DNA of 64,000 nt from Arenicellales bacterium (GTDB taxonomy: Bacteria; Pseudomonadota; Gammaproteobacteria; Arenicellales; JAJDZL01): contig CBDAUN010000003.1 in assembly GCA_965200645.1 (NCBI GenBank), positions 519,718 through 583,717 on the forward strand, given 5' to 3'. A program made the position numbers and the translations under genes. The notes under the pieces were generated by a model. It made no database searches. It was not told where the DNA came from and saw only the letters and a list, made by a program, of their open reading frames with translations. Within the stretch, counting starts at the first letter, position 1. Each line of letters starts with the position of its first letter. Positions 8,744 through 34,710 of this stretch are shown piece by piece.

Positions 8744-8845
8744 AATTTATCCTTTTTGTGTGGTTGGAATTTTTTCTTGCAAACTGATATTCAATGTCAC
8801 CGATGCGAATAACTTGCTTGCAGTCTATTTACTTGATTGTTTTAT

Positions 8846-16243: not shown

Positions 16244-17308
16244 CTACTTCCAAATATCTACATCGATACCCTGTTCGATAAAGTGATCAGCACGATCGGA
16301 AATATAGCGCTGAAAATTAGCTTCAGTTTGGAACGACTGACTCGACACGTAAGCAAATAAAGACTGAGTATGAAAAATTTTGAACCAAGCTTCTGACCGA
16401 ATGACCTCTTTGCCCTGCGTATCGAATAGAATAATCGTGGGTGCGTAAGCTATACCGAGATTAGTAGCCCACTGTCGAGCTGTAGTCTTATTCCCATCAG
16501 GGGTAATTAGTTCAGTATTTTTCCACATATCCAACTGAACTACATCAAAAGCTGAGATTTCACTCCGAGTATCCGCATCGGTTAACACTAAAGAGTGCAG
16601 AGTTTCGCAATTCGGACAATCCGCTTGTTCAAAAAATACCGCGATTGGTTTACCTTCAGACTTGGACCGATCCAAGTTGTAAGGGAGTTCCATAAAGAAA
16701 GGTTCTGTAATTAACTTTCTCGTAGAAGGCGTAACTGGCTGGTTATTGCTGACATACTCTCGAAACGAAATTGACCGGTCTGCGCGATTCGCAACATACT
16801 CCAATGCTAATTTGAATTGCTGCGGAGGCAGGTAACCATTGAGTCGCAATACTTTGCTTGCCTGTTCATCGTAAAAAATCATGGTAGGCGTAAATTGCAC
16901 AGCTAATTCATCGGCAAACTCCTTTTCCGTCAGTTCCGTGCCATCCTCACGAGTCACTTCTCGGTCACCCCAAATATTTAATTCCACCACATCAAAGTTG
17001 CTACGAATGGACTCTACGATGTCCTTTTGACTGAGATTTCGCTCAACCAGGGCATTGCAATACGGACAACCGTCTTGATGAAAGAAGTAAATTAGCCTCC
17101 TCCCCTCTTGTGCCGCTTCTGCAACATCTTCGTTGATATCAAGAAAACTATCTTTGAACCACTCTGGATAAGTGGTTAACTTTGCACCAGAAAATGTTCC
17201 TTGAGAGGATGGTTCAGAACTGCTCTGAGCCATCAATTTGAAAGGTAAAGTAAACAGCAACAAACTGCAGGTACTAACAATTACTACTGATCGTATAAAA
17301 GCATTCAT
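16244..17308 (-). CDS. Tandem thioredoxin-fold (double SoxW-like) periplasmic protein
   Basis: Signal peptide; two Trx-like domains with CPYC and CPNC, each followed by a FTPT/YAPT cis-Pro loop. Confidence 0.8.
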   Translation of the reverse strand: MNAFIRSVVIVSTCSLLLFTLPFKLMAQSSSEPSSQGTFSGAKLTTYPEWFKDSFLDINEDVAEAAQEGRRLIYFFHQDGCPYCNALVERNLSQKDIVESIRSNFDVVELNIWGDREVTREDGTELTEKEFADELAVQFTPTMIFYDEQASKVLRLNGYLPPQQFKLALEYVANRADRSISFREYVSNNQPVTPSTRKLITEPFFMELPYNLDRSKSEGKPIAVFFEQADCPNCETLHSLVLTDADTRSEISAFDVVQLDMWKNTELITPDGNKTTARQWATNLGIAYAPTIILFDTQGKEVIRSEAWFKIFHTQSLFAYVSSQSFQTEANFQRYISDRADHFIEQGIDVDIWK

Positions 17309-17411
17309 ATTTCGCTATAGACTTGTTTGATTAGAGGCCATCCACCTTAAGCAGCGTCCAACACATTCAATGAGACAATTTGCATAAGAATCATTCCCAA
17401 TGAAGTTGATT

Positions 17412-18191
17412 CTAGGCTTCTTCCAAGGCTTCCACAGACTCCGGAATAGTCTGTCCGCCATCTACCACTATAGTTTGACCAGTGATGTAACCCGCTTCTT
17501 TGGAAGCAAAAAACAGAGCTGCGTTTCCGATGTCATCCACGGAACCCAGTCGCTTCAATGGTATTGACGCTGCCATAGTTTCCAGGTAGTCGGCTCCAAG
17601 CCCCTCTAGCCCTTCCGTGATGATGTTGCCTGGCATAACCGCATTGACAGTAATTCCATACTTTGCGAATTCCATACAGGCGGTCTTCATAAATCCAAGT
17701 TGACCCGACTTACTCGCTCCGTAATGAGTCCACCCGGGATACCCAGTTATGGGACCCGTAATAGAGGAGGTCAAAATTATTCGCCCGCCATCACTCTCTT
17801 TCAAATGCGGCAAGCAGCTCTTAATCGCAAGAAAAGTTCCCTTTAAATTAACTCCGAGTACAAGGTCCCACTCGTCGCTGGACATATTCTCTAAGTGACT
17901 CTGGGGGAAAATGCCTGCGTTCGAGCATAGCACATCAATACCTCCGAATCGTTCGGCGGCCGCTTGTGCCATTGCATCCATATCGTTAGGGTTGGCGACA
18001 TCAGCAGAAAACGCTGAAGCCGTACCGCCTTGTGCATTAATTTCACTTGCAGTTGCTTCTGCATCTGACATGCCTCTAGCTACGATTAGTACCTTGGCAC
18101 CATGCATGGCAAAAACCTTGGCAATCCCCTTACCAATACCCTTGCTAGATCCGGTTACAACAACTGATTTGTCCTTTACGCTTGTCAACAT
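17412..18191 (-). CDS. SDR, 1-amino-2-propanol dehydrogenase / aminoacetone reductase-like
   Basis: TGSSKGIG, NAGIFP, TSSITGPITGYPGWTHYGASKSGQLGF, PGNIITEGL..LG..YL..M...IP; this pattern matches my recollection of actinobacterial aminoalcohol dehydrogenases of RMM/AAU loci. Confidence 0.8.
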   Translation of the reverse strand: MLTSVKDKSVVVTGSSKGIGKGIAKVFAMHGAKVLIVARGMSDAEATASEINAQGGTASAFSADVANPNDMDAMAQAAAERFGGIDVLCSNAGIFPQSHLENMSSDEWDLVLGVNLKGTFLAIKSCLPHLKESDGGRIILTSSITGPITGYPGWTHYGASKSGQLGFMKTACMEFAKYGITVNAVMPGNIITEGLEGLGADYLETMAASIPLKRLGSVDDIGNAALFFASKEAGYITGQTIVVDGGQTIPESVEALEEA

Positions 18192-18382
18192 GTTAAGTCT
18201 CCCACTAGATCATCATGAATTTTTCTAATAATGGCGCGTGCACTCAACACGCCATCTAAAATCTGCACAGTGCAATATCAATAATATGCTTTCAACTGTC
18301 AAGTTTTTTACCACAGATGAAATTATCGTAATCGCATATTCAGTGAAATTATGCCATTGTTGCAGCTTCTGAGGAGGACAAC

Positions 18383-19666
18383 ATGAGTGAAACCAAGCAG
18401 GAATTTCTAGAAAGAACAAAAGAATACTGGAATCCCGGAAAGACCGAGGATTGGCAGAACTTTGGTGTCGATTTGGTAATCGATCGTCGTGAAGGCTACT
18501 ATCTATACGACTTGGATGGTAAACGTTTGATTGATGTACACCTAAACGGGGGAACCTACAACCTGGGGCATCGAAATCCCGAAGTTGTGGCTGCTGTCAG
18601 AGAGGGAATGAAGTATTTTGACATCGGAAATCACCACTTCCCTTCCCTAATGCGTACTCATGTTGCGGAAATGCTGGCAAACTGTACACCGGAAGGACTT
18701 CAATACACGATTTATGCTTCCGGCGGAGGCGAAGCAATCGATATCGCGTTGAAGTGCGCCCGACATACAACCAAACGACGTAAGTTTATCTGCATCGACC
18801 ACTGTTATCACGGACATACCGGACTTGCAGTTCAGGTTGGAGACGAAAGATTCGCCAAACTGTTTCTAAGCGATGCTCCACAATCAGATGTAGTTAAAGT
18901 CTCATTCAACGACCTCGATGCCATACGACAGGAAATTAGAAAGGGAGATTCAGCATGTGTCATTATGGAAACCATTCCTGCAACCTATGGATTTCCGATG
19001 CCACAGGAAGGTTATTTAATGGAAATAAAGAAGGAATGTGAAAAGCATGATGTCCTCTACATTGCCGACGAGGTGCAAACAGGTCTGATGAGGTGCGGAG
19101 AGATGTGGGGGGTAGATACCTATGGCATACAACCTGACATTTTGGTTACAGGCAAAGGACTGTCGGGCGGAATCTATCCTATTGGCGCTGTCATCGTTAA
19201 CGAACGGGCGGGAGCTTGGTTAAAGGAAGACGGCTGGGGACACATGTCAACATTTGGTGGTGCGGAACTAGGATGTATTGCTGCTGCCAAAGTGTTGGAA
19301 ATTTCCCAGCGCCCAGAGGTCCGCTCCATGGTGCACTACATCGCCCAATATGTTCGAGATGGTCTAGAGCAACTCAAGGGTAATCATTCCGATTTCTTTG
19401 TTGGTATACGTCAACGGGGAGTTGTGATGGGACTGGAGTTCAACCATCCTCAGGGCGCCATTCATGTAATGAAGGCATTATTTGATAATGGAGTTTGGGC
19501 TATATTCTCCTCACTTGACCCAAAGGTATTACAATTTAAGCCCGGAATACTTGTTGATAAGGAACTTTGTGATGAAGTTCTGAATCGACTGGATTCTGCA
19601 CTGAGTAAAGCCCGCATGGTAGCACATAATTCCAATAATCAATCTGAGCTGGCTGATGCAGCATAA
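18383..19666 (+). CDS. Class III aminotransferase-fold PLP enzyme, probable aminopropanol-phosphate phospho-lyase (BMC signature enzyme)
   Basis: IADEVQTGLMRCG, PLP lysine in VTGKGLSGG, HLNGGTYNLGHRNP; next to kinase and SDR; SD GAGGAGG before the ATG. Confidence 0.75.
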   Translation: MSETKQEFLERTKEYWNPGKTEDWQNFGVDLVIDRREGYYLYDLDGKRLIDVHLNGGTYNLGHRNPEVVAAVREGMKYFDIGNHHFPSLMRTHVAEMLANCTPEGLQYTIYASGGGEAIDIALKCARHTTKRRKFICIDHCYHGHTGLAVQVGDERFAKLFLSDAPQSDVVKVSFNDLDAIRQEIRKGDSACVIMETIPATYGFPMPQEGYLMEIKKECEKHDVLYIADEVQTGLMRCGEMWGVDTYGIQPDILVTGKGLSGGIYPIGAVIVNERAGAWLKEDGWGHMSTFGGAELGCIAAAKVLEISQRPEVRSMVHYIAQYVRDGLEQLKGNHSDFFVGIRQRGVVMGLEFNHPQGAIHVMKALFDNGVWAIFSSLDPKVLQFKPGILVDKELCDEVLNRLDSALSKARMVAHNSNNQSELADAA

Positions 19667-19675
19667 GGAATTAAT

Positions 19676-20695
19676 ATGACGACATTTGAAGCACTTTCCC
19701 ACGACCAGCAACTGGAACTACTTGAAGCCACAGCTAGACTCGCTGTCCCTTACTACGATTTGCCGTCGGACGCACAAGTTGTTCTGATCAACCTGTCTGA
19801 AAATGCGACTTATTGTGTTGATTCACCTTCAACTGGAATGAAATGGGCATTGCGGGTTCATCGCGAAGGATATCATTCACATGCAGCCATTTCGTCCGAA
19901 CATGCCTGGACAGACGCACTTAGAGAAGACGCAGGGGTCATCACTCCAACAATTGTCCCAGGCAAGAATGGAGAAAATATTCAGATGGTCCACGCTGATG
20001 GTATGCCTAGCGGTTCACGTCATGTGGTTATCTTCAACTGGGAATCCGGTGAAGAACCGCCTGAAGATGATCTTCACGGCCCCTTCGAACTGTTAGGCAG
20101 TGTTTCGGCACAAATGCATAAGCACTCAATGAACTGGCAACGACCACCGTGGTTCGAGCGCTATACCTGGGATTATGAAACCAGCCTCGGCGCAAAACCT
20201 CACTGGGGACGTTGGCAGGATGGAATGGGAATGAATGCTGAACGCGAAGTTCTTTTTGGCAGGACTGCAGAACTGATTCAGGCGAGACTCCTGAAGTTTG
20301 GTCAACACCCAGAACGTTGGGGATTAGTGCATTGCGACATTAGACTTGCCAATTTACTCATTGAAGGCAATATAACCAAAGTCATTGACTTTGATGATTG
20401 TGGGTTTAGTTGGTTCATGTACGATTGTGCTACTGCCTTGAGTTTTATGGAAGCTCGAGAGGATGTGCCCGAATTGATCAATCAATGGGTTCGAGGATAC
20501 CGCTCCATCATGAGTCTTTCCGAGGAAGATGAGTACGAAATTCCTACATTTGTAATGTTGCGGCGACTGCTGCTAGTTGCGTGGATTGGCTCTCACAGCG
20601 AAACAGACTTAGCCCAATCAATGGGCCTACCCTACACCGAGGAGACAGTAGGGCTTTGTGAAAATTATCTGGATAAGTTCAAAACGACAGTTTGA
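19676..20695 (+). CDS. APH/choline-kinase-fold phosphotransferase, probable aminopropanol kinase
   Basis: NLSENATY, ALRVHREGYH, HCDIRLANLL (Brenner motif), IDFDDCG. Confidence 0.8.
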   Translation: MTTFEALSHDQQLELLEATARLAVPYYDLPSDAQVVLINLSENATYCVDSPSTGMKWALRVHREGYHSHAAISSEHAWTDALREDAGVITPTIVPGKNGENIQMVHADGMPSGSRHVVIFNWESGEEPPEDDLHGPFELLGSVSAQMHKHSMNWQRPPWFERYTWDYETSLGAKPHWGRWQDGMGMNAEREVLFGRTAELIQARLLKFGQHPERWGLVHCDIRLANLLIEGNITKVIDFDDCGFSWFMYDCATALSFMEAREDVPELINQWVRGYRSIMSLSEEDEYEIPTFVMLRRLLLVAWIGSHSETDLAQSMGLPYTEETVGLCENYLDKFKTTV

Positions 20696-20719
20696 GTCGC
20701 TTTACTTGAGTCAAACACT

Positions 20720-22693
20720 CTAAGCAATTCCGTACATTTTCTTACGGCGTTCTGCCCACTCAACCAACAGTCGGTCTGCCGTCAGACCAATAAAGGCTAC
20801 GCATAAACCTATGACTAAACCCTTTCCGCCATCGTTGAACGTGAGGGCTCGAAAGATTTCCTGTGATAAGTCGACAGTTCCGATAAATCCAGCAATCATT
20901 ACCATAAACAATCCAAACATAAGCGTTTGATTGAGACCAAGCACAATCTCCGGAAAAGCCAAAGGCATTCTGATTTTCCACAATAACTGCCGTTCTGTGC
21001 ATCCTGAAGTTATTGCCGCCTCAACAATTTCCTTTGGGACATTTCTTAAGCCAAAAATCGTGTAACGCGTGATTGGAATCATGGCATAAATAATGATTGC
21101 GAAAATGGCTGAGACATCACTAATTTGAAACAACATGACGACCGGCAACAAATATATAAATGACGGAAAAGTCTGAAAGGTATCGCAAAGATTTTGCACA
21201 AATTTGGTAGACCAGTCGCGACGCGCCGCCCATATCCCTAATGGAATTCCAAGCAGTGCACAAACGATTAAGGAAACTAACACCATATAGACGGTAATCA
21301 TTGCCCGTACCCAGTATCCCGAAGCAGCAATGAAGAACACAAAACTGACGACGACAAGTGCCAGTTTCCAACCTCCCATACGCCACCCAAGGCAACCAAT
21401 AAGCACGATAGTTGCGATCCAAGGAATTGAGGTAATCCAGGATCTAATAGGAATCAAAAAGTAAACTAAAAATGAATCACGAAATACCGCCACTGGACCG
21501 TAGAAATGCAACGTGATGTAGTCCACCATTGCATCCCATACAACAGAAGTTGAAATCGTTAAATGCTCAGGAAAAGTTCCGATATAGGATGTAACAAATG
21601 ACAGTAGAAAAATTGTCACGGTAAAGCCCAGTGCTACCGTCATGTAGGGCTTTCTAACCCAAAATGCTCCCCGTCGAATATGATCCGGCTGCTTGGTTGC
21701 CACCGCCTGACTAAATCGATCGAGTGCGATAGCTATAAAAACTACTGCGATACCGACTTCTATGGCCTGACCTATAGCTAGGCGCTGCAAGCGAGTCAAC
21801 AGGTCGTGTCCTAGTCCGGACTGACCAATGAATGAAGCAATGACAACCATCGCCAGACACTGCATGATCACCTGATTCACACCTAGCATCAGTTCTGATC
21901 TGGCAGCGGGAAGTTCAACTCGAAACAACATTTGCCTGGGCGTGCATCCCGCCATTGCACCCGCTTCAATTATTTCGGGCGAAATTCCCCGTATTCCGAG
22001 AATTGTCAGTCGAGTCATTGGAGGAAATGCAAAAATTATCGTTGCGATGACACCAGCCTTGGAACCGACTCCGAAGAAAATCGCAACAATGATGAGATAG
22101 GAAAAGTGCGGCAGCGATTGAAGAACATTTAGAATTGGCCATATTGCTCTTTCAAATCGAACATACTTTACTGCAAGAATGCCGAGAGTAAGTCCGATGA
22201 TTCCGGCCAGTGGGACCGAAACAGAGATCGCAGAAAGGGTCTGCATCGATAGTTCCCAGATGCCACGTTTGCTGAACAAAGCCAAGTAAAAAAAACAGCC
22301 ACCACCCAGCAGCGCGAGGCGCCAGCCCTTTAGATACAGTCCATAAATGGCGGTTAAACCGACCAGCAACAACCACGAAACGGGAGGAATATTGATATCT
22401 GAAAATCCCTTGTGCAGCAGTGCTTCAGAAAAATCCAAGGGAATATCAATTGCATTAGCTAGCGCCCTGGTGATGTCCTTGAAGGTAAATGCGCCAAAGA
22501 ATTCATATTTGCGTAGAAAGTTGATGATAGCATTCACCCAATCTACAAAAGGAATAATCCCATCTATTGTGGCACATCCAGCCAAACAACTTTTTGGTGG
22601 AGTTATCAACCATTGCGGTAAAACTGGGGTCAATGCAACCAGTGCGACGAAAGGTAAAAATACCAGTAAGAACTTAAATCGTGCAGCGTTCAT
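20720..22693 (-). CDS. tmoV: Quaternary-amine ABC permease with duplicated ProW-like domains (TmoV-like)
   Basis: 657 aa, two BPD_transp_1 repeats with EAA loops (IIEAGAMAGCT, IVEAAITSGCT); adjacent to tmoX-like gene. Confidence 0.75.
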   Translation of the reverse strand: MNAARFKFLLVFLPFVALVALTPVLPQWLITPPKSCLAGCATIDGIIPFVDWVNAIINFLRKYEFFGAFTFKDITRALANAIDIPLDFSEALLHKGFSDINIPPVSWLLLVGLTAIYGLYLKGWRLALLGGGCFFYLALFSKRGIWELSMQTLSAISVSVPLAGIIGLTLGILAVKYVRFERAIWPILNVLQSLPHFSYLIIVAIFFGVGSKAGVIATIIFAFPPMTRLTILGIRGISPEIIEAGAMAGCTPRQMLFRVELPAARSELMLGVNQVIMQCLAMVVIASFIGQSGLGHDLLTRLQRLAIGQAIEVGIAVVFIAIALDRFSQAVATKQPDHIRRGAFWVRKPYMTVALGFTVTIFLLSFVTSYIGTFPEHLTISTSVVWDAMVDYITLHFYGPVAVFRDSFLVYFLIPIRSWITSIPWIATIVLIGCLGWRMGGWKLALVVVSFVFFIAASGYWVRAMITVYMVLVSLIVCALLGIPLGIWAARRDWSTKFVQNLCDTFQTFPSFIYLLPVVMLFQISDVSAIFAIIIYAMIPITRYTIFGLRNVPKEIVEAAITSGCTERQLLWKIRMPLAFPEIVLGLNQTLMFGLFMVMIAGFIGTVDLSQEIFRALTFNDGGKGLVIGLCVAFIGLTADRLLVEWAERRKKMYGIA

Positions 22694-22870
22694 AAATTCA
22701 GTGTAGCAGACTTTATAGGCCTGAAAATGATACTTAGAAATTTAGATTGTCAGTTGCTGTTCTGGTGATGCTTGCCACATCGATTTTATTACTTTAATTA
22801 AGTAAATTAAATGTGTACAATTAGACCTTTTTTGCATTCATAAAATTTAATTAGGAGAGAATAATAGAAT

Positions 22871-23812
22871 ATGAAGGTTCTAAAATCTATTTCCATCGCG
22901 GCAGTTGCCGCAATTTCCCTAACGGTATTTTCTTCCGTTAGCGCCGACTCGATCAAAATACCAACTCATAACTGGTCTAGCCAATTAGTAGGTGCCCAAA
23001 TAGTAGGTAAATTGTTCGAAATGGTCGGCGAAGAAGTGGAATATGTCCCAATTGATAGCCAAACTGTTTACCAATCAATGTGCGAAAACGACATCGACAT
23101 CGTGCATGAAGTGTGGCAAGGTGCATTTGGTGCTGCCTTTGAAAAAGTAGTAGACGAAGGTTGCATTATCGATCTAGTCACTCATGATGCCAAGACTAGA
23201 GAAGAGTGGTGGTATCCGCTACATGTTAAGGAGCATTGCCCCGGACTGCCAGACTGGAAAGCCCTTGATGCTTGTTCAGAAAAGTTCGCGCGTGCAGATT
23301 CAGACGGTAAAGGCGTATTCATCGGCGGTCCCGTGGACTGGTTGAAGCATGACGCTGAAAAAGTCGAAGCTCTAGGTATGAATTTTCAGGTTCGCAATGC
23401 CGGTTCTGCAGCAGCGATCTGGGCCGAACTTGAAGCTGGAATCAAACAGAATAAGCCAGTAGTTATCTTTAACTGGACACCAAACTTTATTGAAGCGCTT
23501 TATGAAGGCGAGTTTGTAGAGTTTCCAGAACACGAAGCCGCCTGTACTACAGATGCCTCGTGGGGTGTCAATTCAGATATGCTCTACGACTGTGGAAACC
23601 CAAAAGACGGATACCTCAAGATTGGTATTTCCATGCGCCTGAAAGATGAATTTCCTAAAGCATATAACGTCGCAAGCCAAATTAACTTCACCAACCTAGA
23701 CATCGCAAAGCAGTCTAACTACGTCGATACAGACGGAATGGAAGTTGAAGCTGCCGCCGACCGCTGGTTGGAAGAACATAAAGAAAAGTGGCAAGCCTGG
23801 GTACAAATGTAG
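22871..23812 (+). CDS. tmoX: TMAO-binding protein TmoX-like (OpuAC family)
   Basis: IPTHNWSSQ, EVWQGAFGA, TREEWWYP, CPGLPDWKAL, GPVDWLKH, NAGSAAAIWAE, FNWTPNF, LYDCGNP: motifs I recognise from Ruegeria/SAR11 TmoX. Confidence 0.85.
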   Translation: MKVLKSISIAAVAAISLTVFSSVSADSIKIPTHNWSSQLVGAQIVGKLFEMVGEEVEYVPIDSQTVYQSMCENDIDIVHEVWQGAFGAAFEKVVDEGCIIDLVTHDAKTREEWWYPLHVKEHCPGLPDWKALDACSEKFARADSDGKGVFIGGPVDWLKHDAEKVEALGMNFQVRNAGSAAAIWAELEAGIKQNKPVVIFNWTPNFIEALYEGEFVEFPEHEAACTTDASWGVNSDMLYDCGNPKDGYLKIGISMRLKDEFPKAYNVASQINFTNLDIAKQSNYVDTDGMEVEAAADRWLEEHKEKWQAWVQM

Positions 23813-23855
23813 TCAGCAATGTACACTGATCAGCGGCTTTAGTGTCGCACTGACT

Positions 23856-23893
23856 AAAAGGCCGATCAAGTAATCACAGATCGGCCTTTTTTT
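23856..23893 (+). terminator. Intrinsic terminator after tmoX
   Basis: AAAAGGCCGATC-N11-GATCGGCCTTTT followed by further Ts. Confidence 0.85.
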
Positions 23894-24021
23894 ATCTCTC
23901 CACATCAGCCATTACAATTATATTCATTTGATTATGGTGACCCAAACCGCAACAAGCTACTTTATATAACGACGTTGAATTTTTAATTTAGCAAAATTGA
24001 AATAACATATACGCAAAATGA

Positions 24022-25071
24022 ATGACCGAGACTGACATGGATAGAAGTGTAAAAATTGCTTGTGAAAACGTGACCAAACTCTACGGTAAAAATCCCGAAG
24101 AGTTTCTTCGCGCACACAACTTCGACCCAGACGCTGAAACGATAAAGTCAAACGGATACATTTCAGCGGTTAGAAATGCCAACTTTGAAGTGTACGAAGG
24201 GGAGATTCTAATCATCATGGGACTTAGCGGGTCAGGTAAGTCAACACTTGTTCGATGCCTGACAAGGCTGGTTCAACCTACTCATGGCAAGGTCATGTTC
24301 GATGGTATAGATCTACTGCAGGCGAGTAAGTCCGAACTAATCGATATCCGCCGCCACAAAATGGGAATGGTGTTTCAACATTTCGCCCTTTTCCCACATC
24401 GTACTGTATTGCAAAACATTGCATTTCCGTTGGAAGTTCAAGGCGTTGAAAAGGGAACTCGGGAGGCCAAGGCTCGTGAAATCATTCAGATTGTTGGCCT
24501 GGAAGGCCGCGAAGACTATTATCCTAGAGAACTTTCAGGCGGTCAGCAACAAAGAGTTGGTATTGGCAGGTCCTTGGCAGTGGAGCCTGATGTTTGGTTC
24601 CTGGACGAACCGTTTTCTGCACTTGACCCACTTATTCGTAAGGAAATGCAGGATGAATTTATTAGACTACAGTCAGTTCTAAACAAAACAATCGTATTCA
24701 TTACTCACGACTTTGACGAAGCCATCAAACTGGCCGACCGAATTGTGATTATGTACGAAGGATTGATCGTTCAGATTGGGACTGCTGAAGAACTGATTAC
24801 AAATCCAGCAAATGATTATGTTGGTGAGTTCACGAAGAACGTATCTCGGTCGAAGTTGCTGTCTGTGAATAGTATGATGTCCCCTCTCAACGGTGACACC
24901 CATCCCAACATTACTGTAAACAAGAATGATAGGATCGCAAAAATTGCAGCTAAGGTATTAGAGACTAATCAAGATGTCCGTGTGGTTGGAGATAATAACG
25001 AAGTTGTGGGTTCTCTAAAAAGGCAGAAATTGATGGAGATCCTATTTCAAGATGGCTACGATCCAAAGTGA
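24022..25071 (+). CDS. tmoW: ProV-like ABC ATPase (TmoW-like)
   Basis: GLSGSGKST Walker A, LSGGQQQRV signature, FLDEPFSALDPLIR, degenerate CBS tail. Confidence 0.8.
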   Translation: MTETDMDRSVKIACENVTKLYGKNPEEFLRAHNFDPDAETIKSNGYISAVRNANFEVYEGEILIIMGLSGSGKSTLVRCLTRLVQPTHGKVMFDGIDLLQASKSELIDIRRHKMGMVFQHFALFPHRTVLQNIAFPLEVQGVEKGTREAKAREIIQIVGLEGREDYYPRELSGGQQQRVGIGRSLAVEPDVWFLDEPFSALDPLIRKEMQDEFIRLQSVLNKTIVFITHDFDEAIKLADRIVIMYEGLIVQIGTAEELITNPANDYVGEFTKNVSRSKLLSVNSMMSPLNGDTHPNITVNKNDRIAKIAAKVLETNQDVRVVGDNNEVVGSLKRQKLMEILFQDGYDPK

Positions 25072-25127
25072 CGCCAACCTACATCATGGCGATTGGTTAG
25101 ATTGATACCAAATACCGCTTTGACCGA

Positions 25128-25760
25128 CTAATGCTCCCGTCCCGGGAGCTGAGAAAACTTGTCGAGAACATGCTCGAGTGCACGATTGATGTCCTGCTCA
25201 TCTCCAGAAATAAATACTCTACCTGACACACCAATCATCTGAACATTGACAAGTACATTGTTCGGTGCGGCCTTTTCGGCTTCGTTTGCCGCCGCAGCGG
25301 CAAATAGTGCCGGTGCCACTTCAAGCAGGAATAACGATTCACCTGGATAGATCATGGAGGCCTCACGCTGGCGATTCACAATCACTGCGTGATAGTCCGT
25401 TACATCTTTGATCATGTCGGAGTACAGCACTCTTGGTCTCAATTGGTCTTCAGACTTTAAATTGAATCCTTCTAAAACGGCAGACCCAGCCTGTTCCAAA
25501 TCGTCAGCATTGCGACTGTGTAGCTCCAAGATTCCAAACTGGCGTTCAACATACAGCAAGCCCGGTTCAACCTCGGGCACGGACTTTAGTGCAAGGTCTA
25601 TCACTCGATGCACCGCTAATGCGGGTGCAATTTCAATGATCAGAGAGTGCATTCCCCGTAATGGAACATACCCACGCGCACGCAACGCAGCAGCCATATA
25701 GGATGCAAATTGCGTCTGCAGATCGTCCACCCGCAGATACACTCTCAACTCAGCCATCAC
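25128..25760 (-). CDS. BMC-T shell protein, CcmP-like (BMC-Tdp)
   Basis: ELRVYLRVDDLQTQFASY, VERQFGILELHS, LEVAPA...AANEAEKAA, GRVFISG tandem permuted BMC domains. Confidence 0.9.
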   Translation of the reverse strand: MMAELRVYLRVDDLQTQFASYMAAALRARGYVPLRGMHSLIIEIAPALAVHRVIDLALKSVPEVEPGLLYVERQFGILELHSRNADDLEQAGSAVLEGFNLKSEDQLRPRVLYSDMIKDVTDYHAVIVNRQREASMIYPGESLFLLEVAPALFAAAAANEAEKAAPNNVLVNVQMIGVSGRVFISGDEQDINRALEHVLDKFSQLPGREH

Positions 25761-25811
25761 AAAGTCGTAGCTTAGATCAAGTTATCAATTGAAGTCGTTG
25801 AAAAGTCTATT

Positions 25812-26102
25812 CTATTTGCCAGACTTAACGTCGGCAGCACCAAATTTATCGATTGCATCGGCATGCGGTCGTGGAATCACGTGTACCGATACCACCTCAC
25901 CAACTGAACCTGCTGCTTCGGAGCCAGCTTCTGTCGCCGCCTTAACAGCGCCAACATCGCCACGAACCAAAACTGAAACAAGTCCTGCACCAACCTGTTC
26001 ACGTCCCAGAATTTCTACATTTGCAGCTTTGACCATAGCGTCGGCCGCGGTAAACGCTGCAACATAACCGCGAGTTTCTATAAATCCAATAGCGTTTGAC
26101 AT
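25812..26102 (-). CDS. BMC-H hexameric shell protein
   Basis: [43 protein letters not shown]. Confidence 0.97.
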
Positions 26103-26125
26103 TTCAATCTCCTATGTTTGATAAA

Positions 26126-26389
26126 TTAATCACCGCTTGCTTGTTCATCGACGATACCAATGACCAAAGCATCCACAACGGCATTCCCAGTTTCGAACCA
26201 CCCTTTTGCTACAGAACCTTGAGTGACAATGACCCTTTCATCCCGTCCTGCTCCTAGTGGATCAAATGCAAGAATTCTTTCTACACTATTGTCCTGTTCG
26301 ACAATATCTATTTCCAACAGGGCACCATTTGGCAAGTCATTCAGACGCCTGGTTGCCCAAATTTTTCCGGCTACAGTTCCTACTTTCAT
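26126..26389 (-). CDS. BMC-P pentameric vertex protein (EutN/CcmL family)
   Basis: MKVGTVAGKIWATRR, AFDPLGAGRDERVIVTQGSVA, VDALVIGIVD. Confidence 0.95.
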   Translation of the reverse strand: MKVGTVAGKIWATRRLNDLPNGALLEIDIVEQDNSVERILAFDPLGAGRDERVIVTQGSVAKGWFETGNAVVDALVIGIVDEQASGD

Positions 26390-26391
26390 TT

Positions 26392-26889
26392 TTAATGCCT
26401 CAAAATTTTGATGTTCACACTTCTTGCTCGATCCTTTGCCAATGGAGTTAGCACAACTTTTGGACCAAGCACGATCTGCTGATGCTGCTTGGCAAGCTTC
26501 AAAACAGCTGATTCAGTCAAGACTCCGCTATCCATAAAATAATCAGAACAAGAGATTTCCGAGTTAGCACTCGTATGGTTTGGTCGGCTGCTTCGTTTTG
26601 GTGCAGTTGCTTTGTTTCTAAGCTCAAAGCGTAATTGCCCTCTTCTGCACGCTAGCTTAATTTTGTCGTCCTCCATACACATAGACAGTTCCTTAACAAA
26701 CTCATTCAATTCTCTTGAAGAACCAATGGCCACCTCTACGGGTGAATGCGACCGTGTCATTGCTCTACGAAGTTTTCTGGCAAACTCGCTATCCAAGCTT
26801 GAGATTTCCTGCTGCTGTGGGACTGGCAGGGATTCACGAAGTGCATCTCGCACCGCTGCTCTAATCTGCTCTTTGGAATACTCAGGCAT
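26392..26889 (-). CDS. BMC-associated hypothetical protein with N-terminal encapsulation-peptide-like helix
   Basis: Inside the shell operon; EQIRAAVRDALRE amphipathic N-terminus; C-terminal VLTPLAKDRAR motif seen in BMC accessory proteins. Confidence 0.7.
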   Translation of the reverse strand: MPEYSKEQIRAAVRDALRESLPVPQQQEISSLDSEFARKLRRAMTRSHSPVEVAIGSSRELNEFVKELSMCMEDDKIKLACRRGQLRFELRNKATAPKRSSRPNHTSANSEISCSDYFMDSGVLTESAVLKLAKQHQQIVLGPKVVLTPLAKDRARSVNIKILRH

Positions 26890-26895
26890 TCTTCT

Positions 26896-27501
26896 TTATA
26901 CTCTCGCCTCTAATGTTTCTTCGGCTGCTCTGGCAGCGGCTCGAACATCACTTTCCGCACCACTGAGATAAACCCGCCCAGTCGCTCCAATCATTCTGTA
27001 ATCAACTACTTTAACGTCTGCCGCCTTTTCCGCTTCGTTAGCAGCAAGTATTGCAAAAGAAGCTGGTTGCATTTCCAGGACAAATAGTGACTCTCCGGGA
27101 TGAATCATAGAACCAATCTTGTTTCGATTGATTAAAAAGGCATGGTAGTCATCAATACGTTTCACAATCCTCGAGGCGAGAATTTCCGGTGCCATAGCAT
27201 CAGCCGCGGTTGCACCCAACACGTCGAGTACGGCTTCTCCTCCGGCACGAACATCACCGGTGTCGTAGGAATGAAATTCCAAATAGCCAAATTGTCTTTC
27301 GACCACCAATATTCCTGGCTGTACGTTGACACTTTTTAGGGCTATGTCCGTAATTCCTTCAATGTGCAATCCAGGAACTACTTCAATGACCATTGCCGCC
27401 ATGTTTGTTCGAGGCAAGCAACCTCGAATCCAACTACCCAGATAGCACATTGTCTTTGGCTGAAGCTGATCAATGAAGATGTAGGAGCGAAGATTGGCCA
27501 T
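26896..27501 (-). CDS. Second CcmP-like BMC-T shell protein
   Basis: LRSYIFIDQLQP, VERQFGYLEFHS, LEMQPA...AANEAEKAA, GRVYLSG. Confidence 0.9.
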   Translation of the reverse strand: MANLRSYIFIDQLQPKTMCYLGSWIRGCLPRTNMAAMVIEVVPGLHIEGITDIALKSVNVQPGILVVERQFGYLEFHSYDTGDVRAGGEAVLDVLGATAADAMAPEILASRIVKRIDDYHAFLINRNKIGSMIHPGESLFVLEMQPASFAILAANEAEKAADVKVVDYRMIGATGRVYLSGAESDVRAAARAAEETLEARV

Positions 27502-29075
27502 TATTCTCTCTTTTCTTCGGTGACGAGGTGGAGAGACTTAATCTCTTCAATAATAATTTCGTGAATCATCGCACGTAGATCCTGACCTGATGCTGCGATT
27601 GAAACGGTTCCTGTATGACCGGTATCAATACCATCCTTAGGAGTAAAGGAGTAGTCAATGGCACCCTTAAGTGAACGATCAACTTCGCATTCAGGTAGCT
27701 GAATGTCATTGAACTGACTTAAGTCATATGCCTTGTTCTTGTTGTATGCCATTCGCACCCATTGAACTAGATGCTGTGGACCGACATTTTCTCCTACAGA
27801 ACTTCGACCATAGAATCCCGTTCCTACCGTCATCGTCGGTGCCAGGTTGGTGTCAAATCCTGAAGCACCCGTACTGCAACCAGCATTAACTGCTATCCTC
27901 AGTACATTCATTTCCGAACCGAAGCGGAATATCATCTCTTCGTCTTTGCAATGAATTGCTGCAGAGTGACCGCCGCCGGTGTGACGGGTCATAGCGGTAC
28001 AGGCCTTCATTGCTGAATCACGGCTATCTACTATGAAATATCCCAGTACTGGACAGAGTTTTTCTGTGCTTAACGGGTAGTCATCACCAATTCGCTCCAG
28101 CGGCACAACCAGTACTTCAGTGTTTGCGGGTAAGCGGATCCTCGCCTTTTCCCCAATCCACTCAGCCGACTGACCAACCACCGCAATGTCAAATTTTCCT
28201 TCAGGAAATAAAACTTCAGCAACACGGTCCCGTTCTTGCTCACTACAGAAGTAGCAACCATTCTTTTGCATTGCCAAAACTAACTGATCGCTTACTTTTT
28301 TATTGGCAATCACAGCGGACTCGTTGGTACACAAAATGCTGCGATCAAATGCCTTGCTTTGCGCAATTTCCTTAGCTGCATGTTCTATATCAGCTGATTT
28401 ATCGACATAGGCTGGACAGTTTCCAGGGCCCACTCCGAGCGCCGGATTTCCTGAACTGTAGGCAGCACGTACCATCAATGACCCGCCGGTTGCTAGAATC
28501 AAGTCGATTCTGTCGGAATGCATGATTGTTTCGATAATCGGAAGCTTAGGTTCCTCGATTACTTGGACGATGCCATCAGGAGCACCAGCTGCTTGTGCAA
28601 CTTCGGCAATTTGGTTTACGGCGTCCGTACAGCATTCTTTAGCAGCCGGATGAGGACTAATCACAACAGCGTTTCTAGTTAGCAGGCACAGCAAAGCTTT
28701 AAAAAAAACGGAACAAACCGGATTAGTTGATGGAGTAAGAGCAAAAATGACTCCTGCAGGTCGTGGAATTTCAATAATCCCCTTCTCTTCATTGACCCTT
28801 TGACTGATGAAGTCCTGATCCTTGTAGTATTCGTAAATTCCTTCACTACACAGCCGATTTTTGACTTCCTTATGGTCTGGATTACCGAATCCAGTTTCGT
28901 CTACCGCCCAATCAGCGTAGAAACGCGCAGTTTCAGCTCCAAGGTCAGCCACGGCTTTTGCAATTCGTAGTACATCAGCTCGTCTGTAATTCGAGTAAAT
29001 GCTCGCAGCCCAACGTGCTCGTTCAACGACACGGGCTGCCTGAAACTCGGGCATTTTGGCGAAATTCATAGTCAT
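27501..29075 (-). CDS. CoA-acylating aldehyde dehydrogenase (EutE/PduP-like) with C-terminal encapsulation-peptide-like helix
   Basis: PSTNP, ATGG, GVGPGNCP, catalytic LCTNES, EKLCPVL; long linker then DLRAMIHEIIIEEIKSL. Confidence 0.92.
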   Translation of the reverse strand: MTMNFAKMPEFQAARVVERARWAASIYSNYRRADVLRIAKAVADLGAETARFYADWAVDETGFGNPDHKEVKNRLCSEGIYEYYKDQDFISQRVNEEKGIIEIPRPAGVIFALTPSTNPVCSVFFKALLCLLTRNAVVISPHPAAKECCTDAVNQIAEVAQAAGAPDGIVQVIEEPKLPIIETIMHSDRIDLILATGGSLMVRAAYSSGNPALGVGPGNCPAYVDKSADIEHAAKEIAQSKAFDRSILCTNESAVIANKKVSDQLVLAMQKNGCYFCSEQERDRVAEVLFPEGKFDIAVVGQSAEWIGEKARIRLPANTEVLVVPLERIGDDYPLSTEKLCPVLGYFIVDSRDSAMKACTAMTRHTGGGHSAAIHCKDEEMIFRFGSEMNVLRIAVNAGCSTGASGFDTNLAPTMTVGTGFYGRSSVGENVGPQHLVQWVRMAYNKNKAYDLSQFNDIQLPECEVDRSLKGAIDYSFTPKDGIDTGHTGTVSIAASGQDLRAMIHEIIIEEIKSLHLVTEEKRE

Positions 29076-29179
29076 CAGTGACTGTCTTTATCAATTCGTA
29101 GTCATAATTCTGGATTTTCGGTTGTAAGTGTAGACGCAATCAAGCCAATAACTCTTGACACTAAACGGCAAAATTTTGA

Positions 29180-29210
29180 CTTTTCAACAAAAGTTGTCCT
29201 GGTTGAAAAG
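29180..29210. promoter_or_regulatory. Inverted repeat in the BMC operon/AraC divergent promoter
   Basis: CTTTTCAAC-N13-GTTGAAAAG, a perfect 9-bp inverted repeat. Confidence 0.4.
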
Positions 29211-29449
29211 CATCGAAGAAACAGTACTTGAATAAATGACTCGAAGGTTAAAAGTTGAAGTTGTTGCACATATTGGAATTTTTAAGACAACAATTTCAAT
29301 AAATCAGCTGTTTGAATAATCCAATACTACAATTTTTGTGTTGTTTGAAAAACTTCTCAGTTTAAGACTGAATAGCGTGTAGTAACACTTGATGATTAAT
29401 TTATGTAATAATTTCAACTCATTAAAAGTCGCAATGGCACACTAGCGAT

Positions 29450-30529
29450 ATGAATGCTGAAATCTATGCTCGGACTTCGTCATTTTCTAACCCGATAAAT
29501 GGTGATTCCGATTCTGAGCCGCATGTTCTGGCACCGGCTGCTACAGGTGTAGATGAATTCATTAACCAACACGGTGGTGATGTCGACCGTGTATTCGGAG
29601 AAGCTGAAGTTGACTTAAACTGCATTGGCAATCCAACAGCTGGAATGGAGCTGAAGTCGTTTTGCGGACTTTTCGAATCAGCATCCAAACATACCCGTAA
29701 CGATAACTTTGGACTGTGGTTTGGCAATCAATTCACTCCAAGCGATTTAGGCCTTTGGGGATATGCCGCGATTTCATCTCCAACCCTTGGAGCCGCTTTA
29801 GATAATCTGATAGATTTATTTCGGTTTCACCAACAATGCTCCTTGCTAAGACTAACAAAATCTTCCTATGCCGGGATGCTGCAACTTGAGTATCAAGTTC
29901 GTGACCCTCAAATCATACAACGGCGGCAAGACGCTGAATTGTCGTTGGGTATGTTTTTGAATGTGTTTCGCAATTGCTATGGTCAACACTGGCATCCTGA
30001 AGAAGTGTATTTTGAACACCCAAAACCAGAAAACTGCAACGAACATCAAACTGCGTTCAACGCTCCGGTATTCTTTAACCAAAACGTAAACGCAATCGTG
30101 TTTAAGGAAAAAGAATTGGAACGTAGAATGCCTCAATGCGACCTTAAGTTGATGTCGATGATGCGAGTTTGTCTTGAGACACTGGGCAATGGTACTCCAC
30201 TGACACAGAACTTAATTGATCGCATTCGAAATGTGATTCGCGCGAATCTATCGAGCAGTTGTCCTTCTCTTGAGCAAGTAGCCGAAGCGATGCATATGAG
30301 TGCAAGCGCAGTCCAACGAAATCTCGCATGGGAGGGATTGTCATACACCGATCTTGTCGAAGAAACTAGACAAAATTTGGCGCAAATTTACTTAAGACAA
30401 CGTAATCTCTCACTATCCGAAATCGCATACCTACTCGGATATTCGGAATTAAGCGCCTTTAGCCGTGCCTTTCGCAGATGGACTGGCCAGTCTCCACGTA
30501 GCCACAGAGGCGGCCATCAAGATAAGTGA
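29450..30529 (+). CDS. AraC-family transcriptional regulator
   Basis: N-terminal Arabinose_bd_2-like domain; C-terminal double HTH (LSEIAYLLGYSELSAFSRAFRRWTGQSP); divergent from the BMC operon. Confidence 0.92.
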   Translation: MNAEIYARTSSFSNPINGDSDSEPHVLAPAATGVDEFINQHGGDVDRVFGEAEVDLNCIGNPTAGMELKSFCGLFESASKHTRNDNFGLWFGNQFTPSDLGLWGYAAISSPTLGAALDNLIDLFRFHQQCSLLRLTKSSYAGMLQLEYQVRDPQIIQRRQDAELSLGMFLNVFRNCYGQHWHPEEVYFEHPKPENCNEHQTAFNAPVFFNQNVNAIVFKEKELERRMPQCDLKLMSMMRVCLETLGNGTPLTQNLIDRIRNVIRANLSSSCPSLEQVAEAMHMSASAVQRNLAWEGLSYTDLVEETRQNLAQIYLRQRNLSLSEIAYLLGYSELSAFSRAFRRWTGQSPRSHRGGHQDK

Positions 30530-30544
30530 TATTGTCGTTCAAGC

Positions 30545-31348
30545 TTATGCACGATTGTGAACTCGCCTGACGATCTTTAGAACTACATATAGTATCAACA
30601 CGATTGCAGCGGCACCGGTCATTGTCAACGAACCTAAGGTTGGCACCATCGGTGTATAACCGGAAACCATCTTCGCATACAGCCACTCCGGAATAGTTTG
30701 ATCCGCACCAGTGGTAAACAATGACAAGGGGAAATTACCCCAAGACAATAGAAACGCAAAAATCGCTCCTGAAATTATGCCAGGTGACAATATGGGCAAA
30801 GTTATCTCCCGAAATACCTGCCAGCGTGAAGCCCCCAAGTCGAAGGCGGCTTCTTCCCACACAGGGTCAAAACTGTACACTTGAATCGACATAATCAAAG
30901 TCACTATCGGTAAAATCCAGATCATGTGGGCAAAGACAGCCGTGTGCCAACTGGTAATGATTCCAATGGAAGAAAACCATAGAAGAAGCGCTAATCCAAG
31001 CACTGCTTGAGGAAAGAATATGGGCAGCATAATCAGTCTTTGATACATCTTGCGACCTTTCCAGTCATAACGAGCAAATGCCAATGCCCCAAAAAAAGCG
31101 AGCACAACCGACAGCAACGTAACTAATGCAGCAACTGAAAAGGATGTCCAAAACAAATCCCGTACAGACAGCGAACTAAAGGCTTTTTCATACCACCTCG
31201 TATCCCAGAACTTTATCGGAAACTGGAAATAACGCTGCTTGGTAAACGATGCGAGAATGACCGAAAACAGTGGCATGTAAAGAAACAGAATTACTGCTCC
31301 CGTCCACAGCGCAATCAGATTGCGAGCAATACGCTTTTTACTATCCAT
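30545..31348 (-). CDS. PotC-like ABC permease
   Basis: LFLYMPL, WEEAAFDLGASRWQVFREITLP EAA loop. Confidence 0.88.
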   Translation of the reverse strand: MDSKKRIARNLIALWTGAVILFLYMPLFSVILASFTKQRYFQFPIKFWDTRWYEKAFSSLSVRDLFWTSFSVAALVTLLSVVLAFFGALAFARYDWKGRKMYQRLIMLPIFFPQAVLGLALLLWFSSIGIITSWHTAVFAHMIWILPIVTLIMSIQVYSFDPVWEEAAFDLGASRWQVFREITLPILSPGIISGAIFAFLLSWGNFPLSLFTTGADQTIPEWLYAKMVSGYTPMVPTLGSLTMTGAAAIVLILYVVLKIVRRVHNRA

Positions 31349-31351
31349 ATC

Positions 31352-32212
31352 CTACCTTCGCCCGATCACTTGATCCAAATCGATGCGCCGAAAGAGAAAG
31401 AAAATAATCGCACCGCAGAGTGCAATTAACAAAACTGAAAGAACCGATCCCCGAGGCCAGTTTTGCGCAAAAGTAAAGGCCGACTCAATATCATCTGAAA
31501 TCATTACGATTACTTGTCCGCCAAGGATTTTTGATTCCGCTAATGAGCCAAGAGCCAAAATAAACGTCAGCATACTTCCAATTAAAATTCCGGGCATTGA
31601 AAGCGGAACTTCAACCTCTTTGAATATCTGAAATCGATTCGCACCCAAATCTGCCGCTGCTTCCTTCAGAGTATCTGGAACCATAGACATGCCGATTACT
31701 AGCGGGAACAACATAAATGGCAGATAGACATATACAAGACCCAGGATAACTGCCGGAACCGTATATAGCATTCCCGATAGGCTGACTCCAAAAATGGCCT
31801 GCAAAGACCCGTCAATAATGCCGTTTTTCAGTAGAAGCAAGACCCAACCAAAAAGACGAATGTTTTCTGAAATAAGCAATGGTAATGCTATAAGCACGGT
31901 CAAAAGTGTTGCCCATCTTCCGAACAACTTTGTCATTCCATAGGCAATTGGATAAGTGACCAACAATAAGAGCAGGACAGTAATCAGTGCTAAAAATAGT
32001 GACCAGGAAAAAGATATGTAATAGCTCTCTGTGACAACGGAAAGATAGTTATCCAGAGTCGGAGCCTGCTTGAGAGAAAAAGTCTTGGGTGGCATAAAGC
32101 TGTATGCCACGACAAGAGCAAGAGGGCCTGCAAATCCAATCAGTAGAAAAACACTTGACGGTAACGCCGCCAGTACGCCTGGCTGTCTTAACCAGCGGTT
32201 TAAGTTCTTCAT
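31352..32212 (-). CDS. PotB-like ABC permease
   Basis: YVYLPFM, LKEAAADLGANRFQIF EAA loop. Confidence 0.88.
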   Translation of the reverse strand: MKNLNRWLRQPGVLAALPSSVFLLIGFAGPLALVVAYSFMPPKTFSLKQAPTLDNYLSVVTESYYISFSWSLFLALITVLLLLLVTYPIAYGMTKLFGRWATLLTVLIALPLLISENIRLFGWVLLLLKNGIIDGSLQAIFGVSLSGMLYTVPAVILGLVYVYLPFMLFPLVIGMSMVPDTLKEAAADLGANRFQIFKEVEVPLSMPGILIGSMLTFILALGSLAESKILGGQVIVMISDDIESAFTFAQNWPRGSVLSVLLIALCGAIIFFLFRRIDLDQVIGRR

Positions 32213-33285: not shown

Positions 33286-33340
33286 TGTTTTGCAATCAGT
33301 CTAGAGTTTGTGAATCAGATTACGAAATAGTTAACGCCAA

Positions 33341-34495: not shown

Positions 34496-34710
34496 AACAA
34501 TCCTCCTAGAAAAATTGAGCAAATTACACCAATGCTTTAACTGAGCATTGAATTAATTTAAAAAGCAACTGGTGTAGGAATAGAATCCCTGCCCCAATTG
34601 CCTTCAAATTCTATTATTAAGTAATTCAATATTACTCGAGACGCACTATGTTATCAATTTTTTGAGAAATAGAATGTCTATGCAACAATTCTCACTCTCT
34701 ACCAATAAAT

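Follow-up and report, generated by a model that had tools for sequence, protein, structure and literature searches.

The closest described relatives of the locus presented here are the bacterial microcompartments (BMCs) of the RMM/AAUM family, in which two types are distinguished by the text, tree labels and Suppl. Data 2 of the current catalogue (Sutter et al. 2021, Nat Commun 12:3809, PMC8217296). RMM1/AAUM1, with 140 loci, is known from diverse Actinobacteria and Proteobacteria. RMM2/AAUM2, with 32 loci, is listed for "a variety of Proteobacteria and Ca. Marinimicrobia" and has a gene order unlike that of RMM1; in the BMC-T tree, its members are labelled Pelagicola, Rhodobacter, Notoacmeibacter and Verminephrobacter, next to an unclassified alphaproteobacterium and a marine metagenome-assembled genome (MAG) labelled Acidiferrobacter (PMC8217296). 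The stretch of DNA analysed here, called the window, is 64,000 nucleotides long (positions 519,718 to 583,717 of contig CBDAUN010000003.1) and stems from an Arenicellales bacterium. It contains a locus for what is probably a metabolosome of the RMM/AAUM family, more precisely of its proteobacterial (RMM2/AAUM2-like) kind, predicted to break down a small amino alcohol via the aminoacetone/aminopropanol route. To our knowledge, all experimental knowledge of the RMM organelle comes from Mycobacterium smegmatis.

A preliminary description of this DNA had placed an RMM/AAU-type microcompartment at 17412-29075. All of its genes are present with intact frames at these positions, and the system reaches further, to 34522, with an AraC-family regulator and a Pot-like ABC importer (all coordinates are collected in Table 1). 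The order given for the shell genes, T-H-P-hyp-T-AldDH, comprises the right genes but has to be read in reverse: the block lies on the minus strand throughout and is transcribed from the aldehyde dehydrogenase (AldDH) gene through a BMC-T gene, a gene for a hypothetical protein (hyp), BMC-P and BMC-H to the other BMC-T gene, with starts and stops that overlap or abut closely. As regards the organelle family, the earlier identification was correct, as seen from the matches of the BMC-T pair, the kinase and the short-chain dehydrogenase/reductase (SDR) and from the core gene order of Rhodococcus jostii RHA1, described below. The locus is assigned to an RMM2/AAUM2-like type by its gene content, its layout and the text and tree labels of the catalogue. 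It resembles that type in host phylum and in the possession of one BMC-H, one BMC-P, two BMC-T(dp), an AldDH, a class-III pyridoxal phosphate (PLP) enzyme, an APH-fold kinase and an SDR.

The shell set is complete: one BMC-H, one BMC-P and two non-equivalent double-stacking BMC-T paralogues, T1 and T2. The best match of T2 in the PDB is 5l39, the "RMM microcompartment shell protein MSM0275" (E = 4e-87), followed by HO-type shell trimers at E-56, and that of T1 is 5suh, MSM0271 (E = 8e-77). The two paralogues pair one-to-one with MSM0271 and MSM0275 of M. smegmatis, each scoring far above the other paralogue. Two actinobacterial RMM1 loci served for comparison, the annotated RMM locus on plasmid pRHL2 of R. 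jostii RHA1 (L088) and a second one (L089), which gives the same picture. The identity to the RHA1 shell proteins is 65% for T2, 61% for T1, 72% for BMC-H and 44% for BMC-P; T2 is 64-77% identical to alphaproteobacterial proteins. Membership in the RMM/AAUM family is well supported, since the shell paralogues, the kinase, the SDR, the hypothetical protein and the AldDH all find their best matches among components of M. smegmatis or R. jostii.

Both RHA1 and L089 encode a homolog of the hypothetical protein at the equal operon position (31% identity, E = 3e-14 for RHA1). A conserved amphipathic helix is present at the N-terminus of the protein (residues 6-20, positions 26830-26874), and the alignment outlines two small domains and a C-terminal TPLA.DRAR motif, which is invariant. 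A Pfam search with this protein gave no match, and its AlphaFold2 model (pLDDT 73), compared with the PDB by Foldseek, matched no fold with an E value below 0.1.

In RHA1, the RMM1 operon runs AldDH-T-hyp-P-H-T-aminotransferase, and this core order is the same in the window. RMM1, as known from M. smegmatis (MSMEG_0269-0277) and RHA1, furthermore shares with the window an orthologous shell set, a homologous hypothetical protein, an AldDH with a like C-terminal peptide and a kinase of the same family. The enzymes, on the contrary, are far more diverged from RMM1 than the shell (39% identity for the kinase, 42% for the AldDH). The accessory genes also differ: a GntR regulator and a secondary amino-acid/ethanolamine permease are found in RHA1 and L089, whereas the window has an AraC regulator and an ABC importer. 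In the RHA1 locus itself, the T-hyp-P-H block appears as an exact tandem duplication (L088 9001-14490), with the same protein accessions twice.

The kinase and the SDR, whose genes form a unit with that of the PLP enzyme apart from the shell operon, connect the locus with the aminopropanol route. The best PDB match of the kinase, over nearly its full length, is 6ef6 (E = 9e-83; next-best 8e-16), which we take to be the M. smegmatis aminopropanol kinase of Mallette and Kimber, 2018. It is 39-40% identical to actinobacterial kinases, of which one lies divergent from the RHA1 RMM1 operon (39%) and one in a non-BMC locus (L091). The SDR best matches 6ci8/6ci9 (E = 5e-90), presumably the RMM aminopropanol dehydrogenase from the same work on M. 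smegmatis. Its orthologues are 86-92% identical at the equal position in Arenicellales MAGs and 61-76% identical in alphaproteobacterial loci. Judged from these matches, the kinase is probably a 1-amino-2-propanol kinase and the SDR probably an (S)-1-amino-2-propanol/aminoacetone dehydrogenase.

The enzyme set proposed in the preliminary description is only partly that of the actinobacterial organelle: the kinase, the SDR and the AldDH match RMM parts, but the PLP enzyme does not. This 427-aa protein has a putrescine aminotransferase as its best PDB match (E = 2.5e-50) and is only 23-25% identical to the RMM1 enzymes of RHA1 and L089. The RHA1 enzyme (535 aa), in comparison, has matches among characterised phospholyases, namely 5g4i (E = 2e-94) and human ETNPPL, 6tor (E = 1e-87), and its C-terminus bears the same amphipathic peptide as that of the RHA1 AldDH; the L089 enzyme is alike. 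In a maximum-likelihood tree, the window enzyme and all other kinase-linked proteobacterial enzymes form one clade with 100/100 support, separate from an ETNPPL-like clade (100/100) that holds the RMM1 enzymes. No ETNPPL-like enzyme is present among the 13 class-III paralogues of the genome. The window enzyme and the actinobacterial RMM phospholyase are thus not orthologous: RMM1 has an ETNPPL-type phospholyase with an AldDH-like peptide, encoded in the shell operon, whereas the window has a peptide-less enzyme of an unrelated class-III clade. It follows that the pathway at this step can only be assigned by analogy.

The active-site region offers a hint about the reaction. Where YgjG reads T-I-R-I-E-P-P-L, the window enzyme has V-L-Q-F-K-P-G-I, and phospholyases have V-x-K-x-R-P-P-L. 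The transaminase IRIE is replaced by VLQ[FWY]K, with both Gln and Lys in 59/59 orthologues, that is, the kinase-linked enzymes recovered from related loci. We take the Arg of the IRIE motif to be the carboxylate-binding residue of class-III enzymes. The kinase gene begins 9 nt past the stop of the PLP-enzyme gene, and this pairing is retained in most related loci. A lyase acting on a phosphate ester is favoured over a 2-oxoacid transaminase because of the lost Arg, the basic residue two positions on and the coupling to a kinase; we infer that the window enzyme is such a lyase. Many of the kinase-linked PLP enzymes (the window, L006-L032, L039, L064, L067, L078) end in ...AA, for example ELADAA, RQSAA or PKAA, reminiscent of an ssrA-like degradation tag; the shell-less versions from Mesorhizobium end differently.

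The AldDH has the acetylating AldDH 5j78 as its best PDB match (E = 1e-95) and is 42% identical to its RHA1 counterpart. It ends in an amphipathic helix, DLRAMIHEIIIEEIKSLHL (residues ~499-517, positions 27525-27581), which is the predicted encapsulation peptide. In the form LRxEIRRIIxEEL, this helix recurs in every orthologue linked to a shell as well as in RHA1 and L089, whereas L046, a locus with no shell, has an AldDH that lacks it. No such peptides were seen in the SDR, the kinase and the PLP enzyme.

Relatives of these proteins are abundant. More than 6700 kinase relatives were found at E ≤ 1e-20 among the candidates scored. Separately, when one genome per species was scanned, at least 592 genomes encoded a kinase relative. 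Public data also contain 3870 relatives of T2 (E ≤ 1e-30), many of them 76-87% identical. The nearest relatives are Arenicellales MAGs, with kinases 72-78% identical. The window proteins were mapped onto 80 fetched loci, about half of which contain the shell block, in three recurrent proteobacterial layouts. In alphaproteobacterial loci such as L032, the order is PLP-KIN, then T-H-P-hyp-T-AldDH on the opposite strand, AraC and SDR-PotCBA-binding protein; except for the position of the SDR gene, this is the layout of the window. In many other alphaproteobacterial loci, the PLP gene stands in one operon with the AldDH and shell genes. The rearrangement into separate units with different transporters and regulator, to which the preliminary description drew attention, is hence the ordinary proteobacterial layout and not peculiar to this lineage.

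The AraC regulator and the Pot-like importer are regular members of the proteobacterial loci, as they are conserved there by synteny. Orthologues of the regulator are 49-58% identical in most alphaproteobacterial loci that reach that far and 72% identical in the Arenicellales locus L025. Those of the importer (59-80%) come after the SDR gene in most alphaproteobacterial loci. Within the window's family, 11 of 12 relatives encode the binding protein (64-86% identity); among the nine with a known shell position, its distance to the shell genes is 10-50 kb in eight. The OpuA-type importer between the kinase and the shell genes (20720-25071), also considered as a part of the system, was rejected on synteny: it occupies this position in none of the related loci, relatives encode the orthologous binding protein (80-86%) at sites remote from the shell genes, and it is incidental and probably unrelated. 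In its place, the kinase-shell spacer of relatives carries YHS-domain proteins, DUF4143 AAA ATPases or IS605 OrfB/TnpB. This spacer resembles an insertion hot spot, and in four relatives (L006 11126-16684, L013 12265-12909, L015 11227-15121, L021 11387-15817), a conserved YHS-domain protein adjoins the BMC-T gene.

Among the 19 Arenicellales loci long enough to judge, the shell lies within 10 kb of the kinase in 12. In the other seven (loci L010, L011, L012, L014, L016, L022 and L024; genomes G084-G090), the T2/T1 pair is found elsewhere in the genome, at distances from about 60 kb to over 1 Mb. The enzyme trio and the shell thus co-occur in 19/19 genomes, which agrees with the preliminary description: it named a trio that never accompanies this shell block in relatives as a refutation of its reading. 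The modules are unlinked in the Arenicellales lineage yet strictly co-retained. A T2 orthologue with its T1 partner is present in 24 of the 81 sampled genomes of the order and in 11 of the 12 sampled from the window's family, the window genome counted. Outside this lineage, Mesorhizobium, Hyphomicrobium and other Hyphomicrobiales have trio loci without a shell (L043, L046, L059, L074, L075, L081-L084), often together with the Pot-like importer. The PLP enzymes of these loci nest among the shell-linked ones in the tree, which indicates that shells were gained or lost repeatedly.

Such loci correspond to a kinase/phospho-lyase pathway that shares the kinase-PLP-SDR trio, and often the same Pot-like importer, with the window but has no shell genes; its AldDH is either absent or, as in L046, lacks the encapsulation peptide. 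Turner and co-workers reportedly detected aminopropanol kinase and phospho-lyase activities in Pseudomonas, and Mallette and Kimber are said to have discussed the genes of this shell-less pathway in 2018.

The same genome contains a second BMC locus about 150 kb away, outside the window (L005 4515-14017; contig C3, ~694500-704000). It encodes a GS-like protein, BMC-P, BMC-H, a 6PGDH-like protein, an AldDH, a BMC-T, an L/MDH with an N-terminal extension and RidA, together with a Liv-type ABC importer, a GntR regulator and a divergent FAD oxidoreductase. By its predicted genes, this locus is of the MIC2 type, feature for feature as given in the catalogue's description (Sutter et al. 2021, PMC8217296). 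A carboxysome, plausible for a sulfur oxidiser, is ruled out by the GS-like, 6PGDH-like, L/MDH-like and AldDH genes. According to the catalogue, genomes with MIC2 have no other BMC type, and RMM2 always stands alone, with no satellite loci (Sutter et al. 2021, PMC8217296). Contrary to this, RMM-type and MIC2 loci occur together in 9 of the 12 sampled genomes of the family. Moreover, a third BMC-T, which is of the MIC2 kind, is present in each of the seven MAGs with dispersed modules, so that MIC2 probably co-occurs in these as well. The window genome therefore departs from the catalogued RMM2 in its MIC2 locus, in the dispersal of the modules in its relatives and in the OpuA-type insertion.

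In the proposed pathway, the Pot-like system would import a small amino alcohol or aminoacetone, which the AraC regulator would sense. The SDR would interconvert aminoacetone and 1-amino-2-propanol, and the kinase would form the O-phosphate ester. From this ester, the PLP enzyme, which belongs to the kinase-coupled class-III clade in which the carboxylate-binding Arg is lost, would eliminate phosphate and ammonia to yield propionaldehyde. The encapsulated AldDH would then trap propionaldehyde as propionyl-CoA, which would exit to the methylmalonyl-CoA pathway: the genome encodes a methylmalonyl-CoA mutase for propionyl-CoA (781 bits), and no true PrpB was found in it.

Several points weigh against this pathway. 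The PLP enzyme has no terminal extension or recognisable encapsulation peptide, and it is closer to putrescine aminotransferase than to any characterised phospholyase, for which reason its lyase activity is put forward with caution. The metabolosome core is incomplete. In the EUT system, which likewise converts an amino alcohol via a volatile aldehyde to an acyl-CoA with an encapsulated acylating AldDH in a shell of BMC-H and BMC-P, the aldehyde is released by the B12-dependent ammonia-lyase EutBC, and a phosphotransacylase and an alcohol dehydrogenase recycle the cofactors. The window, with its kinase and PLP route, has the AldDH, but a PduL-type phosphotransacylase (PF06130) has no match in the whole genome and no alcohol dehydrogenase was found in the locus by domain calls. 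The recycling of NAD+ and CoA is consequently unexplained, as for RMM generally. Furthermore, the M. smegmatis kinase is reportedly only moderately specific (Mallette and Kimber, 2018), so that a different amino alcohol could be the substrate in nature. In favour of the locus, on the other hand, there are RNA data from a metatranscriptome run of the same study as the sponge metagenomes mentioned below. Its assembled contigs span the locus except for two intergenic breaks (23854-24050 and 29058-29354), and the contig with the AraC and Pot genes is 4-5 times deeper. The depth of the run is similar to that of the DNA runs, and a 56-kb contig is included. As these are assembled contigs and genomic DNA may have been carried over, the data are suggestive only and no proof of expression.

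The doubt about the substrate leads to the question of whether the same organelle might mainly serve another one, either ethanolamine, degraded independently of B12 via phosphoethanolamine and acetaldehyde to acetyl-CoA, or another amino alcohol of the sponge host, with aminopropanol and aminoacetone as side substrates. Acetylating acetaldehyde dehydrogenases are the closest relatives of the AldDH, the characterised class-III phospholyases 5g4i and 6tor, matched by the actinobacterial enzyme, act on phosphoethanolamine, an ethanolamine permease flanks the RHA1 locus and the clade of the window PLP enzyme is uncharacterised. The SDR, however, is retained in almost all loci although a route from ethanolamine would give it nothing to do, and both it and the kinase best match structures that we take to be the aminopropanol enzymes of M. 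smegmatis; another main substrate is thus considered unlikely. The missing peptide and the shell-less trio loci, with PLP enzymes that nest among shell-linked ones, would also suit a cytosolic trio acting on its own, with a shell that encloses only the AldDH (and the hypothetical protein) as a general aldehyde trap, and so would the distances of up to 1 Mb between the modules of relatives. Such a loose coupling of trio and shell appears quite unlikely to us: the PLP gene shares an operon with the AldDH and shell genes in many alphaproteobacterial loci, trio and shell are co-retained in all 19 Arenicellales genomes checked, and an aldehyde produced outside the shell would defeat the known purpose of a metabolosome.

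A different reaction at the PLP step was part of an earlier proposal for RMM: a transaminase scheme was first put forward by Axen et al. (2014). Here, a true aminotransferase would convert aminoacetone to methylglyoxal, or aminopropanol to lactaldehyde, and the AldDH would then produce pyruvyl- or lactoyl-CoA. The best structural relatives of the window enzyme are indeed the transaminases YgjG and ArgD. The Arg of IRIEPPL is nevertheless a Gln in every orthologue, and the enzyme is paired with a kinase that would have no role in this scheme, which makes it very unlikely. The last alternative takes up the view of the preliminary description that the system is undescribed, and sees in it an organelle recently acquired from actinobacteria that was then rearranged in the present lineage. 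The shell proteins, 60-72% identical to the actinobacterial ones, are compatible with an old horizontal transfer. Against the alternative stand the thousands of public relatives, the breadth of species with the kinase, the shell block in about half of the mapped loci, and the catalogue, in which both RMM1 and RMM2 already have proteobacterial members (Sutter et al. 2021, PMC8217296). The system is therefore not undescribed, and a recent transfer is extremely improbable.

As a catalogue entry, the locus is ordinary, RMM/AAUM having been listed in Proteobacteria in 2021 and being very common in public data. No mention of Arenicellales occurs in those supplementary text files of the catalogue that were included here (PMC8217296), and a literature search on sponge or Arenicellales microcompartments, on AAUM/RMM2 and on aminopropanol kinase/phospho-lyase yielded nothing useful. 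Three features may go beyond the descriptions found: the PLP enzyme of the signature step, which is non-orthologous and lacks the peptide; the dispersed but strictly co-retained modules; and the co-occurrence with MIC2. Taken together, they allow a tentative reading, which we consider possible but less than probable. Proteobacterial AAUM2-type organelles would use an unrelated, kinase-coupled and peptide-less class-III PLP clade (Arg to Gln) and not the ETNPPL type; the signature reaction would have been taken over by an analogous or a different enzyme, and cargo would be loaded differently, perhaps via the hypothetical protein. In sponge Arenicellales, the modules for cargo, shell and transport would in addition be scattered over distances of up to 1 Mb and still be strictly co-retained, next to an amine-related organelle of the MIC2 type.

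If this is true, the signature lyase of M. smegmatis is not used by the far more numerous proteobacterial loci, and the M. smegmatis model may not transfer at the key step, where these loci have another enzyme. A peptide-less PLP enzyme would also make questions about RMM directly testable, namely what the shell contains and how four different cofactors are supplied. Moreover, a family of sponge-associated sulfur oxidisers would keep two amine-related organelles in genomes of 2.6-4.2 Mb, which would point to small amines and amino alcohols from the host as carbon and nitrogen sources in the symbiosis.

Table 1. Features of the microcompartment locus and the genes within it (positions in the window; domain calls from Pfam and NCBIfam profiles).
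Feature	Position	Strand	Support
SDR, probable (S)-1-amino-2-propanol/aminoacetone dehydrogenase	17412-18191	-	Pfam adh_short_C2, E 3e-61
Class-III PLP enzyme, candidate amino-alcohol-phosphate phospho-lyase, clade distinct from ETNPPL	18383-19666	+	PF00202, E 3e-72
APH-fold kinase, probable 1-amino-2-propanol kinase	19676-20695	+	PF01636, E 3e-21
OpuA/ChoXWV-type fused (double) permease	20720-22693	-	domains
OpuAC binding protein	22871-23812	+	domains
ProV-type ATPase	24022-25071	+	domains
BMC-T (double-stacking), T1, MSM0271 orthologue	25128-25760	-	NF053796 CcmP-like, E 1e-58
BMC-H hexamer shell protein	25812-26102	-	PF00936, E 8e-28
BMC-P pentamer vertex protein	26126-26389	-	PF03319, E 2e-19
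Hypothetical protein, 165 aa, RMM-specific, conserved	26392-26889	-	no Pfam match
Second BMC-T (double-stacking), T2, MSM0275 orthologue	26896-27501	-	best PDB match 5l39
CoA-acylating AldDH	27501-29075	-	TIGR02518 / AdhE N-domain type
AraC-family regulator, QhpR-like, amine-responsive type, divergent from shell operon	29450-30529	+	NF049968 QhpR, 313 bits (cut-off 250)
PotC-like	30545-31348	-	domains
PotB-like	31352-32212	-	domains
PotA-like	32209-33285	-	domains
Tat-signal binding protein of Pot-like importer	33341-34522, probable start 34495	-	domains; twin-arginine signal RRNFLK

The source genome consists of three contigs with a total of 2.6 Mb. The host is a sponge-associated, Sox-positive gammaproteobacterium of the Arenicellales: sponge metagenomes carry sequence near-identical to the window, and SoxB is encoded within it at 2961-4652 on the minus strand (806 bits, exceeding the curated cut-off). 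Sox-type sulfur oxidation is therefore supported, in agreement with the sulfur-oxidising host named in the preliminary description. A promoter and terminator scan of 17000-35000 gave fewer promoter-like sites than shuffled sequence. Just upstream of the locus, a single open reading frame of 2451 aa occupies 8837-16192 (plus strand), followed at 16244-17308 (minus strand) by a thioredoxin-like protein with two Thioredoxin_2 domains. Most Arenicellales relatives encode an orthologue of the latter (51-62% identical) upstream of the SDR gene; the gene is thus syntenic.

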